Shown here: positions 36,360-40,314 of the stretch, piece by piece | Numbering within the stretch: position 1 is the first letter of the stretch | How the letters are laid out: each line of letters begins with the position of its first letter | Source of the DNA: Pseudoalteromonas sp. | GTDB taxonomy: Bacteria; Pseudomonadota; Gammaproteobacteria; Enterobacterales; Alteromonadaceae | Reading direction: 5' to 3' | NCBI RefSeq assembly: GCF_041629635.1 | Contig: NZ_JBFKMX010000001.1 | Location: 7,863-71,862 of the forward strand | DNA length: 64,000 nucleotides | Program-made: the position numbers and the translations under genes | Notes under the pieces: model-generated | Databases searched by the model: none | The model's input: the letters and a program-made list of their open reading frames with translations, nothing else | What the model was told of the DNA's origin: nothing

Positions 36360-39002
36360 TTGAGCACAATGATAGAGCAATTTTTTCGCGGTGATTATAT
36401 GCCACACGGGCATTGCTATCTATGGCAGCCGCATATTTTGTGGACTCATGTTGTATCTGATCTTCTAATTGCCACCGCTTACTTTTCTATTCCACTTGCA
36501 CTTATTCTCTTTGTAAGAAAGCGCAGGGATATTGGATATCACAACGTTTTTTTATTATTTTCGCTGTTTATATTGTTTTGTGGCATTACTCATCTTTTTG
36601 GTATTTGGACTATTTGGCAGGGCGTTTATGGCTACCATGGTATTGCCAAGGGCGTGACTGCCTTAGTCTCTATTACAACCGCATTTTATTTGTATAAATT
36701 GTTACCTGAGTTGTTAAAAGTGCCAACTATATCGCAGTACGAAGGTATTAAGTCGCAATATGGATTTTCGAAGCGTGAAAACAGATTACTTACAAGTTTA
36801 CTCGAAGGACATACTCAAACAAAATGGATGTTAGATTCGTTACCATTAAGTTTTATTTTAGCTAATAAAAATGGGGATATTTTGTTCGTGAATGAACACT
36901 TTATAAAAGAGTTTGGCAGCCCAGTGGATAAACTTGGTTCGTTAATAAGTGCAACTAACCAAGAATATGAACAGGTTATACAAACCAGTGCAGCCGCACT
37001 TGAACTCGATGAGACAGTGAATTTTATCGCCGATGTGAAGACTGAAAACTCGAGTAAAAGTGTGGAAATTATTTTAAATAAAAAAGAATATGAAGGTGAG
37101 GTTCAACTTTTACTTACGTTAAAAGATTTAAAAGAAGTGGTGTCGTTAAAGCAGCAGTTAGTTGAAAAAAATGCCCGTTTTGAAAGAGCCATCTCTGCAA
37201 CCAATGATGGAATTTGGGATTGGAATATTTTAACAGGAAAGCAAGTGTGGACGCCTAAATTCTATGACTTAATAGGACTATCTAAAACATGTGAAGCAAG
37301 TTATGAAAACTGGTTTAATCATATTCACCCGACCTATCGTGAAAGAGTTCAGCAGGCGGTTGATCTGCATTTGAAAACCGGCGTTAAATACGAAATCGAA
37401 TATTTAGGACGTAATAGTGTTGGTGAATATGGCTGGTTCTTAACGCGAGGAAGCTCAATTCATGATGATAACGGCGTACCGATAATGATGTCGGGTTCAT
37501 TGCGATATATTGATGAGCATAAAAAGGCGCAAACTTTGCTTGATGAACGCACCCAATTTTTAGAAGCGCTCTATATGGGAGCAAATCATGGTATTTGGGT
37601 AGTGGAATATATCGATGATGATTTTATCTATACAACTTACAATAACACTGCGCTAGAGTGGACCGGTATTACACTTGAACAAATCATTAATAAAAAACTG
37701 TCTCAATTAAGTTTTTTCCCTGACAAAGTAAAAGCACATTTATATGAGCGCTACTCTGCCTGTATTCAACAAGCAACGCCTTTGGAATATGTTGAATATA
37801 TCCCATTTGCCGGCAAAGCAAAGTGGTTTAAAACATCACTCTATCCGGTAAGCTCAAATCATTTAATTGGCAGTGCGGTTGATATCACAACAGAAAAAAA
37901 CACACAGCAGCAATTAGCTGAAAATCATAACTTTTTAGAAAGCTTATTGGATAGTTCTGTCTGTGGTTTTTATATATATAATTTGGAGACTCAGCAAAAT
38001 GAACGTATTAATAAAACGTACACTGAATTGCTTGGCTATGAACTAGAAGACTTTTCAAAGGATGTTGATTTATTGGAAAAATTTCATCCAGACGATCGTG
38101 CTAGTGTACTTGCACATATGGATGCGATTATGCAAACGCAGGGTAATGAAAAATATTATTTAGAATATCGCTTTAAACATAAAAAAGGATATTGGGTTTG
38201 GTGTTATTCAGTTGATTCTGTATTAGAGAGAGATGACCAAGGTAGACCTAAGCGGATGCTTGGAACTTTTGTCGATGTTAGTGATAAAAATGCGTTTTTA
38301 AACAAACTCAAAGCTTCGAATGAATACTTAGAACAATTTGCTTTTATTGCATCACATGATTTACAAGAACCCTTACGAAAAATATCCGCTTTTAGTGAAT
38401 CGATCTATCAACGTTTGCAAAGTCAGTTCAAGTCAGACCCTGACAGCGAGTTTGAATTGGAACGTTTGCAGTTTGCAGCGAAGCGCCTTAGCAAAATGAT
38501 TGAGGACTTATTGAAGTTATCTCGTATCAATACTAATTCGCTAAGTATTGAAACGGTTGAATTTAGAGAAATTTTAGCACCTGTTTTAGAAGGGTTAGAA
38601 TTAGTAATTGAGCGCGTAAATGCACGTATTCATTGTAATAACGATGGCCAAAAGATAAACGTTGATGTGGGGCTTTTTTCCCAAGTAATGCAAAACTTAA
38701 TTGGTAATTCGATTAAATTTTCCAAACCTAACTCTGTTCCTGAGATTAATATTGAAATTGAAAATTTTGAATCGTTCGTAAGGATTACGCTTTCCGATAA
38801 TGGTATTGGGCTTGATCAAACACATGCACAACGCATTTTTGACCCGTTTAAGCGTTTACACTCTCGAGAAAAATATGAGGGAAGTGGGATTGGCTTAGCC
38901 ATTGTTGCACAAATAATCAAAGTTCATAACGCGCACATTCATTGTGAAAGTGTCGAAAACGAAGGCACTCATTTTGTTATTGAATTGCCTAAGGAGTTGT
39001 AG
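36360..39002 (+). CDS. Sensor histidine kinase with ETR1-like ethylene-binding TM domain and multiple PAS domains
   Basis: SDLLIATAYFSIP...FILFCGITHLF; three to four PAS repeats (GIWDWN, IHPTYR, FHPDDR); ASHDLQEPLRKI H-box. Confidence 0.88.
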   Translation: MSTMIEQFFRGDYMPHGHCYLWQPHILWTHVVSDLLIATAYFSIPLALILFVRKRRDIGYHNVFLLFSLFILFCGITHLFGIWTIWQGVYGYHGIAKGVTALVSITTAFYLYKLLPELLKVPTISQYEGIKSQYGFSKRENRLLTSLLEGHTQTKWMLDSLPLSFILANKNGDILFVNEHFIKEFGSPVDKLGSLISATNQEYEQVIQTSAAALELDETVNFIADVKTENSSKSVEIILNKKEYEGEVQLLLTLKDLKEVVSLKQQLVEKNARFERAISATNDGIWDWNILTGKQVWTPKFYDLIGLSKTCEASYENWFNHIHPTYRERVQQAVDLHLKTGVKYEIEYLGRNSVGEYGWFLTRGSSIHDDNGVPIMMSGSLRYIDEHKKAQTLLDERTQFLEALYMGANHGIWVVEYIDDDFIYTTYNNTALEWTGITLEQIINKKLSQLSFFPDKVKAHLYERYSACIQQATPLEYVEYIPFAGKAKWFKTSLYPVSSNHLIGSAVDITTEKNTQQQLAENHNFLESLLDSSVCGFYIYNLETQQNERINKTYTELLGYELEDFSKDVDLLEKFHPDDRASVLAHMDAIMQTQGNEKYYLEYRFKHKKGYWVWCYSVDSVLERDDQGRPKRMLGTFVDVSDKNAFLNKLKASNEYLEQFAFIASHDLQEPLRKISAFSESIYQRLQSQFKSDPDSEFELERLQFAAKRLSKMIEDLLKLSRINTNSLSIETVEFREILAPVLEGLELVIERVNARIHCNNDGQKINVDVGLFSQVMQNLIGNSIKFSKPNSVPEINIEIENFESFVRITLSDNGIGLDQTHAQRIFDPFKRLHSREKYEGSGIGLAIVAQIIKVHNAHIHCESVENEGTHFVIELPKEL

Positions 39003-39004
39003 CG

Positions 39005-39403
39005 GTGCTTAATCTAATTTTAATTGATGATGATCCTGATGAAGCATATATTTTAAGACAAGCACTTAATCGAGTGGATAAAGACAAGACGTTGTTACAT
39101 TTCAACAATGGCAACCAATTCATTGAATCCTTGAATAAATTTAAAGGAACCCAGACCTTGGTATTACTTGATCTTAATATGCCTCAATGTAGTGGAATAG
39201 AAGTGCTAAAAAAAATTAAAGCCAACAAAGGCGCTGCCAATTTACCTGTGGTGATCTATTCAAATTCAAACAGTCCTCACGACATTGAAATATCGTATCA
39301 GCAAGGTGCTAATTCTTATGTGCGTAAACCTCAAGGGCTAAATGAGACGGTAGATTTTCTTACAGCTTTGTTAAACTACTGGCAAGGGATAAATAAAACA
39401 TGA
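39005..39403 (+). CDS. Single-domain response regulator, Rcp1-like
   Basis: IDDD, LLDLNMP, LPVVIYSNS, GANSYVRKP. Confidence 0.9.
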   Translation: MLNLILIDDDPDEAYILRQALNRVDKDKTLLHFNNGNQFIESLNKFKGTQTLVLLDLNMPQCSGIEVLKKIKANKGAANLPVVIYSNSNSPHDIEISYQQGANSYVRKPQGLNETVDFLTALLNYWQGINKT

Positions 39404-40314
39404 GTGAACAAAGAAAGTTTAAACCGAATCATCTTATTTATCTGTTAGAAGATGATAGTGAGGATGCCTACCTAATAAGGAGTGCACTCAAAAGTGACAA
39501 AATTATCAGTCATTCTATAATGACATTTGACTCATTAGATACGTTAGTACGCGCTTTAGCTAATTTTAAGCCTGATCTTATCATTATGGACTTAAACGTC
39601 ACTGATAGTGATGGTTTTAATACTATGCTCACCGTTAAGCATAGCGCACAGTCAGTGCCAATTGTCGTGGTTACAGGTGTTGAAGATGAAGCTATGGGTG
39701 ACAGGCTGATTCAATTGGGTGCACAAGACTATGTACCAAAGTCCGAACTAACCTCACCTTTATTGCAACGGGTGATACGGTTTTCCAAAGAACGCCACCA
39801 TTTATTACAAATTTTAGAAAACTCGGCAAATCGGGATGCTCTAACAAAACTTTATAGCCGCAAAGCGTTAGACATTAAACTAGAAGAGTTAGTAAAACAT
39901 GCTGAGCGCTACGGTGATGCATTTGCTGTTTTGTTTGTCGATTTAGATAATTTTAAACCGATAAACGACAAATTCGGGCATGATGCTGGGGATCAGTTAT
40001 TAAAGCATGTTGCGAATCGTTTAACATTGTTTAGCCGCTCCACTGATTTTATTGCCCGTTTTGGTGGTGATGAATTCATTACTTTGTTACCTCATATCAA
40101 TAAATTAGATGATGTAAAACAGGCCTGCCAGCAACAACTTAATGCGATTTGTGGTGTTTTTTATATCACAGATTCAGATGGCAAAGCACAACAGGTGGTG
40201 TTATCAGCTAGTATAGGTTTTTCACTATTTGGCGAACATGGTGAAAGTGCGGTTGAACTAATAAAAGCAGCAGATACTGCGATGTATCATGATAAACATA
40301 AAATCAAAAGTTGA
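39400..40314 (+). CDS. Receiver-GGDEF diguanylate cyclase
   Basis: LEDD..IMDLNV receiver; DALTKL, DLDNFKPIND, RSTD I-site, RFGGDEF. Confidence 0.92.
   Translation: MSEQRKFKPNHLIYLLEDDSEDAYLIRSALKSDKIISHSIMTFDSLDTLVRALANFKPDLIIMDLNVTDSDGFNTMLTVKHSAQSVPIVVVTGVEDEAMGDRLIQLGAQDYVPKSELTSPLLQRVIRFSKERHHLLQILENSANRDALTKLYSRKALDIKLEELVKHAERYGDAFAVLFVDLDNFKPINDKFGHDAGDQLLKHVANRLTLFSRSTDFIARFGGDEFITLLPHINKLDDVKQACQQQLNAICGVFYITDSDGKAQQVVLSASIGFSLFGEHGESAVELIKAADTAMYHDKHKIKS

Follow-up and report, generated by a model that had tools for sequence, protein, structure and literature searches.

Can a marine bacterium sense ethylene with a receptor of the plant type, and to what output would such a receptor be connected? 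These questions are raised by a three-gene unit of Pseudoalteromonas sp. that lies on contig NZ_JBFKMX010000001.1 within a stretch of 64,000 nucleotides. We call this whole stretch the window, and all positions are given in its numbering. An earlier reading made from the letters of the window without database searches (the sequence-only reading) had placed three open reading frames at 36360-39002, 39005-39403 and 39400-40314, all on the + strand, and had supposed a gammaproteobacterial host. Both the frames and the host are confirmed. As set out below, the first gene encodes a histidine kinase with a complete ethylene-binding domain (EBD), and a gene for a predicted diguanylate cyclase is kept beside such kinases throughout a lineage of marine gammaproteobacteria.

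Organization of the locus

The first gene (36360..39002, + strand) encodes a sensor histidine kinase of 880 amino acids when read from a TTG codon. Its frame and Pfam matches assign it an EBD, four PAS domains, HisKA and HATPase_c. The sequence AGGA lies 6 nt upstream of the TTG. In the public annotation, the closest homologue begins at an ATG three codons downstream (36369), giving 877 amino acids and shifting the numbering by 3; the choice of start has no effect on the argument. The closest named protein is that of Pseudoalteromonas sp. G4, with 94% identity across the EBD. The second gene (39005..39403, + strand) encodes a single-domain receiver of 132 amino acids, and the third (39400..40314, + strand) a REC-GGDEF diguanylate cyclase of 304 amino acids. 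The GTG start of the receiver gene lies 2 nt past the kinase stop with AAGGAG 8 nt ahead of it, and the receiver stop and cyclase start overlap as ATGA. Because the short gap with its AAGGAG site is followed by this overlap, the three genes are predicted to form one translationally coupled operon.

The ethylene-binding domain

The EBD (ETR1_N; residues 26-121, with three transmembrane helices) is encoded by positions 36435..36722 on the + strand, and was delimited by Pfam PF25487, an AlphaFold2 (AF2) model and BLASTP. The Pfam match covers profile positions 2-97 of 97 with a score of 127.7 bits (E = 2e-37), where the curated cut-off of this family ("Ethylene receptor 1-like, N-terminal domain") is 27 bits. 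A profile search of the genome recovered the same EBD at 132.9 bits. Since the whole profile is matched so far above the cut-off, the resemblance to ETR1 goes beyond chance. BLASTP against the N-terminus of Arabidopsis ETR1 (UniProt P49333) aligned 112 residues at 41% identity (E = 5e-22), spanning helices 1-3; the ETR1 query was entered by hand, so the comparison is a lead.

The sequence-only reading had matched seven residues, D34, Y41, I44, P45, I71, C74 and H78, to ETR1 D25, Y32, I35, P36, I62, C65 and H69 at a constant offset of 9. Counted from the TTG these are indeed the equivalents, and the BLASTP register agrees. The offset of 9 holds across helices 1 and 2, where T77 also corresponds to ETR1 T68. 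The loop between helices 2 and 3 is shorter by 3 residues, so that the offset then becomes 6 and K97 corresponds to ETR1 K91. In 2006 Wang et al. reportedly found that alanine at D25, Y32, I35, P36, I62, C65 and H69 abolishes ethylene binding by ETR1. Seven ethylene-binding residues are mentioned, unlisted, in PMC11819568, and ETR1 K91 has been proposed to bridge to Asp25, relaying the signal to helix 3 (Azhar et al., PMC10266040). The seven pocket residues are invariant in 120 homologues with the exception of I44, which is replaced by Leu in 9, and K97 is found in all 120.

The AF2 model, built with 31 diverse homologues, has a mean predicted local distance difference test score (pLDDT) of 92. 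It shows three long helices (24-54, 61-87 and 90-120), with a short one (2-9) and a PHGHC-bearing loop ahead of them, and the hydropathy agrees. Because the loop between helices 1 and 2 contains RKRR, the positive-inside rule predicts a periplasmic N-terminus including the PHGHC, with the C-terminus of the EBD in the cytoplasm. We infer a topology like that of ETR1. Searching solved structures with the EBD sequence gave no match up to E = 1, and a fold search with the AF2 model returned only generic three-helix membrane subunits (E > 0.8). By its sequence the EBD genuinely belongs to the ETR1_N family, with all the known residues for Cu(I)/ethylene binding and for signal coupling. The claim of a plant-type ethylene-receptor domain is thus borne out, the domain being complete and each residue required for Cu(I)/ethylene binding being kept.

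A PHGxC motif ahead of the domain

An MPHGHC motif (residues 14-19; positions 36399..36416, + strand) is marked out ahead of the EBD by its conservation in homologues, and in the AF2 model it falls at the loop 10-18 that precedes helix 24-54. All 120 close homologues have it, and its form in the wider family is PHGxC, where x = H, Y, M, Q, N, V, T or S. Across 31 diverse sequences H16, G17 and C19 are invariant, equal in conservation to D34, C74 and H78. The ETR1 N-terminus has Cys4 and Cys6, where the bacterial proteins have PHGxC; BLASTP left the PHGHC segment unaligned to the ETR1 N-terminus, and the PF25487 model begins past it.

We also scanned species-representative genomes with the pattern [YF][MI]PHGHCY and an adjacent pattern, both drawn from a 7-sequence alignment. 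At least 600 stretches matched, of which 591 were confirmed as relatives; the scan is centered on the motif, which biases the sample to motif-bearing proteins, and it says nothing on the share of EBDs that lack it. The PHGxC-bearing relatives belong to Cyanobacteriota, Pseudomonadota, Myxococcota, Bdellovibrionota, Acidobacteriota, Verrucomicrobiota and Bacteroidota. The sequence-only reading had described the MPHGHC as an extra motif. The motif is real, but it is not peculiar to this protein, being invariant as PHGxC across diverse bacterial EBDs of at least seven phyla. PHGxC can be read as a sequence hallmark of bacterial EBDs. A function as a periplasmic copper-loading site or second coordination site is plausible because of its position and chemistry, although this is speculation. 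A literature search that had most subscription journals outside its reach found no description of the motif.

The kinase and its two regulators

Four PAS domains lie between the EBD and the kinase core, all encoded on the + strand. PAS-A (residues ~155-231; 36822..37052) is divergent, and was recognized as PAS_8 when the fragment was scanned alone, with 22.4 bits against a cut-off of 21.8. PAS-B (PAS_3; residues ~297-379; 37248..37496) is matched by PF08447 with 61.5 bits. PAS-C (PAS_9/PAS_4; residues 411-513; 37590..37898) and PAS-D (PAS_3; residues 550-636; 38007..38267) were also assigned with Pfam. The LOV-type motif NCRFL is absent from the kinase translation, PAS-C included. The kinase core (HisKA plus HATPase_c; 38331..38996, + strand) was identified by Pfam and by reading its motifs. 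All the kinase boxes are present: H666 lies within SHDLQEPL, with the N-box at 779, G1 at 813, F at 827 and G2 at 841. The SHDLQEPL H-box is presumably of the type known from phytochrome kinases.

The receiver-only protein consists of a single PF00072 domain with D9/D10, the acceptor D56, S86 and K108. Its top matches among solved structures are 6xvu, 8avv, RcpB, Rcp1 and RcpA (E = 2e-18 to 4e-10), with CheY behind at about 1e-8. The label Rcp1-like given to it by the sequence-only reading is therefore fair, as phytochrome response regulators outrank CheY among these matches. It differs from Rcp1, RcpA, RcpB and the bacteriophytochrome regulators that it resembles in having a partner kinase without a phytochrome or bilin-binding domain.

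In the cyclase, the REC domain (14-125) has D64, T92 and K114. The GGDEF domain (143-301; PF00990, 142.8 bits) has a DxD metal motif at 181-183, the A-site GGDEF at 222-226 and an I-site, RSTD, at 213-216, five residues upstream of the A-site. Its closest solved relatives are PleD (E = 3e-31), DgcR (E = 1e-28) and WspR. The description of this protein as an intact REC-GGDEF is correct, since acceptor Asp, A-site and I-site are all present. By their motifs, the kinase, receiver and REC-GGDEF proteins each appear complete in catalytic or phospho-acceptor residues. Among 35 orthologous cassettes the GG(D/E)EF, RxxD, D64, T/S92 and K114 of the cyclase and the D56, T/S86 and K108 of the receiver are invariant.

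Distribution and conservation of the three-gene unit

The genome itself has one copy of ETR1_N. The domain occurs in 41 of 121 sampled Pseudoalteromonas species genomes, nearly always as a single copy. In a separate search for homologues, the named species with the protein included P. luteoviolacea, P. rubra, P. piscicida, P. phenolica, P. tunicata, P. ulvae and P. xiamenensis. Across the order it was found in 14 of 301 evenly sampled genomes and in 11 of 92 genera. When residues 1-140 were compared with 1.84 billion cluster representatives, 8,407 proteins of very varied length were recovered with E <= 1e-3, and 1,213 with E <= 1e-30; the resulting family size of ~8,400 is a number of 50%-identity clusters. 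The sequence-only reading held that bacterial receptors are characterized in few species. That is so, SynEtr1 and AzoEtr1 being the only ones, both of which affect biofilm (PMC11819568), but with ~8,400 clusters and a curated Pfam entry the family is not rare.

Of 20 Pseudoalteromonas loci, 19 have their genes in the order kinase, receiver, REC-GGDEF, and these include loci whose kinases share no more than 32-45% identity with that of the window. The same trio is present in Thalassotalea, Aliiglaciecola, Algibacillus, Oleiphilaceae and other Alteromonadaceae, and probably in Pleionea. The genes flanking the cassette are shared only by the five nearest species. Some kinases are instead hybrids to which REC and HPt domains are fused, and next to these a REC-GGDEF gene is transcribed divergently (Glaciecola, Aliiglaciecola litoralis and Alteromonas sp. 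H39).

A maximum-likelihood tree of 114 EBD sequences placed all the marine gammaproteobacterial sequences on one side of a branch with an SH-aLRT support of 99; the tree was made from 132 columns by a quick search, and trust is limited to its well-supported branches. Within this marine gammaproteobacterial group a GGDEF gene is adjacent in 37 of 39 assessable distinct loci. This count uses the tree and a looser match threshold, after the removal of three duplicate genomes, and one further contig is cut off too soon for assessment. The two loci without such a gene have an orphan kinase (L027) and a REC-PAS-HATPase protein in the place of the cyclase (L040), respectively. Outside the group, a GGDEF gene lies within 5 kb in 10 of 71 loci. 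Given 37 of 39 loci in the group against 10 of 71 outside it, the coupling to a predicted diguanylate cyclase is a lineage-wide and selected feature, and this is the strongest new result of the analysis. The three genes, as predicted from their sequences, are kept together as a unit across the clade in otherwise unrelated chromosomal contexts. The tight linkage of the kinase to the receiver and REC-GGDEF genes that the sequence-only reading had remarked on is thus not incidental.

Other arrangements of the EBD are found in the order and beyond. In other genera of the order, as at L033 (G187), L041 (G404), L036 (G383) and L043 (G250), the EBD occurs as short frames. Those of 204-230 amino acids have no fused kinase, and the kinase and receiver are encoded by genes of their own beside them; those of 397-423 amino acids are minimal EBD-kinases that lack PAS domains. 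In the filamentous cyanobacteria Kamptonema and Microcoleus (L116 and L121) there are two EBD-coding stretches ~1.7 kb apart, i.e. tandem EBD genes.

Comparison with characterized systems

The closest parallel is with AzoEtr1 and its regulator AzoRR(Etr1) of Azospirillum brasilense Sp7. AzoEtr1 is an EBD-PAS-histidine kinase followed by a gene for a receiver-only protein of 135 amino acids, and it binds 14C-ethylene (PMC11819568). It shares the same seven EBD residues, the PAS plus kinase arrangement and a next gene encoding a receiver of about the same length (~135 amino acids). H79 and K98 of AzoEtr1 are the equivalents of ETR1 H69 and K91 (PMC11819568). Because these numbers nearly match H78 and K97 here, they suggest that the sequence leading into the EBD is of similar length in AzoEtr1 and in the window kinase. 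The kinship of SynEtr1 and AzoEtr1 to the clade of the window rests on the residue numbers quoted in PMC11819568. There are also clear differences. AzoEtr1 has 525 amino acids and one PAS domain, whereas the window kinase has 880 and four, and unlike the AzoEtr1 locus the cassette has a third coupled gene whose REC-GGDEF product is an explicit predicted c-di-GMP (cyclic diguanylate) output. The host of AzoEtr1 is an alphaproteobacterium of the rhizosphere, while that of the window is a marine gammaproteobacterium.

SynEtr1 (slr1212/UirS) of Synechocystis sp. PCC 6803 is likewise an EBD histidine kinase with a response regulator partner. It binds ethylene, transfers phosphate to the response regulator, and alters cell-surface properties and biofilm (PMC11819568, PMC6682694). 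SynEtr1 alone has a bilin-binding light-sensor domain, and its output is a DNA-binding regulator and a small RNA, with no diguanylate cyclase. Both of the bacterial EBDs tested bind ethylene with high affinity, and the biofilm of Azospirillum is lowered by ethylene or by the loss of AzoEtr1 (PMC11819568). The plant model, in which ethylene is an inverse agonist that inhibits the kinase, was extended to both bacteria by the same authors (PMC11819568). Plant ETR1 itself has a GAF domain after the EBD where the window kinase has PAS, and it signals mainly via CTR1, not by phosphotransfer.

At the output end, the cyclase resembles PleD of Caulobacter, DgcR of Leptospira and WspR of Pseudomonas in its REC-linker-GGDEF organization, acceptor Asp, A-site and RxxD I-site. 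It has a single receiver as in DgcR and WspR, where PleD has two. It differs from all three in that its presumed cognate kinase is an EBD kinase.

Predicted EBD proteins with varied outputs have been reported in many proteobacteria and cyanobacteria (PMC7700396), and a diguanylate cyclase gene beside a cyanobacterial receptor has already been noted (PMC6682694). Our literature search, with key surveys and most subscription journals outside its reach, found nothing on EBD proteins in marine heterotrophs or Pseudoalteromonas, or on a c-di-GMP output. From its sequence, the cassette appears to be a well-preserved member of a known family of bacterial receptors, and not a new kind of system.

A model for signaling, and its alternatives

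The sequence-only reading had proposed that the sensing of algal or plant ethylene, of a related ligand or of copper controls c-di-GMP and surface colonization. This interpretation is supported in part: the domain and its linkage to the two regulators bear it out, whereas ethylene as the physiological ligand, an algal source of it, phosphotransfer to both receivers and an effect on colonization are predictions. The reading that we favor, and which we judge to be probable, is that the first gene encodes a Cu(I)-dependent receptor kinase of the ethylene type that phosphorylates both receivers when unliganded, with ligand lowering kinase activity and c-di-GMP synthesis. Cu(I) would be held by C74 and H78, with D34 bridging to K97, and the EBD would bind ethylene or a similar small alkene from seawater or from the surface of algae. 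In the absence of ligand the kinase would phosphorylate D64, leading to dimerization of the REC-GGDEF protein and synthesis of c-di-GMP by analogy with PleD, WspR and DgcR, and the c-di-GMP would favor attachment and biofilm. The kinase would also phosphorylate D56 of the receiver, which might serve as a phosphate sink or as a second, protein-binding output. The ligand would be an inverse agonist that lowers the autophosphorylation of H666, as in plants, Synechocystis and Azospirillum, so that c-di-GMP synthesis would fall. Least certain among these steps is the sign of the response. Further inputs from the cytoplasm probably enter through the four PAS domains.

Several points weigh against this reading. 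The sequence fits other Cu(I) ligands as well as it fits ethylene. The direction of regulation is borrowed by analogy from only three other systems, and the four PAS domains between sensor and kinase could dominate the signaling. The output is not absolutely fixed, as the species with the orphan kinase and that with the REC-PAS-HATPase show. 1-Aminocyclopropane-1-carboxylate (ACC) deaminase is absent from the genome, which gave only sub-threshold paralogue hits, and no other ethylene-related gene was found linked to the unit.

Three other explanations have been weighed. The same Cu(I) architecture might serve a different physiological ligand, such as the marine alkenes propene and isoprene, or carbon monoxide. 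ETR1 also binds other olefins, CO and strained alkenes, if less tightly, and what can be seen here is retention of a Cu(I)/alkene pocket and no more; moreover, the invariant PHGxC, unaligned to ETR1 by BLASTP, could alter the selectivity. We nevertheless consider another ligand unlikely, as the two bacterial EBDs so far tested both have high affinity for ethylene (PMC11819568), and the residue at the D25 position is Asp, not the low-affinity Asn variant (PMC10266040). A sensor of copper or of periplasmic redox state, in which the kinase reports the loading or oxidation of the Cu(I) site including the His/Cys motif with no gas involved, would account for Cys and His ligands in the membrane and for the invariant H-G-x-C at the periplasmic face. 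Yet the non-ligand pocket residues Y41, I44, P45 and I71 are as conserved as the metal ligands, and the only conserved partners are the two regulators, with no conserved neighbor for copper resistance or homeostasis. We give this explanation little credence.

PAS domains commonly bind ligands, and ~500 residues of PAS sequence separate the EBD from the kinase core. It could therefore be argued that the EBD is mainly a membrane anchor and dimerization module, the real signals entering through the four cytoplasmic PAS domains. That is very unlikely in our estimation. In an anchor, the seven pocket residues together with T77 and K97 would not be expected to stay invariant over 120 homologues and between phyla, and the family also contains short EBD-kinases without any PAS domain, such as the frames of 397 and 423 amino acids.

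Implications

In a broader form, the favored model of an ethylene-type receptor kinase controlling c-di-GMP would extend to a marine surface-associated clade (Pseudoalteromonas, Thalassotalea, Psychrosphaera, Alteromonas, Glaciecola and others) that reads picomolar ethylene of seawater or algae into c-di-GMP, with PHGxC as a bacteria-specific copper-loading or second coordination site. Seawater contains ethylene at ~17-950 pM, of photochemical and algal origin (PMC4036023). We put forward this extension tentatively, and regard it as rather doubtful. If true, ethylene would be a general cue for attachment or dispersal in the sea. The perception of ethylene outside plants has been shown in two bacteria only, and in both the route from receptor to biofilm lacks an account in terms of a second messenger. 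The cassette offers a short, explicit and conserved path, predicted to run from an EBD kinase via a receiver-controlled diguanylate cyclase to c-di-GMP. Its hosts are culturable marine bacteria, several of them classic colonizers of algae and surfaces, and it would permit a direct test of whether marine biofilm formation takes ethylene from seawater or algae as a cue. The same cassette would also allow a test of what the bacteria-specific PHGxC adds to copper loading or ligand binding. In addition, no EBD structure has been solved, and this small and confidently modeled EBD may suit structural work.

Other genes in the window

Directly upstream of the kinase gene, positions 35831-36226 (+ strand) encode a membrane protein of 131 amino acids that corresponds to the C-terminal half of DUF2391/TIGR02587 only. 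All six genomes with this gene carry the cassette at the same site. It was rejected as a part of the system, as it is found only in these six genomes of the window's own subclade. MarR, GlnD-like, DUF413, LysR and CorA genes were rejected as partners since they are common to near relatives only. The GlnD-like protein (32589-35135, + strand) has a GlnD_UR_UTase match, with no HD reported and ACT at sub-threshold level only. In the gap past the cyclase gene, 40478-40678 (- strand) is an acidic/basic open reading frame of 66 amino acids (MEIDESDFDYEDELEV...) with no Pfam match.

About 12 kb upstream of the cassette lies a second gas-sensor module (22071-25517). An H-NOX protein of the nitric oxide type (23572-24117, - strand; PF07700, 122 bits) is encoded by a gene that overlaps a histidine kinase gene (22071-23579, - strand), and divergent from these is a gene for a REC-HD_5 regulator of the HD-GYP type (24225-25517, + strand). 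Because the window thus has an H-NOX kinase beside an HD-GYP-type regulator as well as the cassette, several gas cues may converge on c-di-GMP in this Pseudoalteromonas. The window contains two gas-type sensors, each beside an enzyme of c-di-GMP type.

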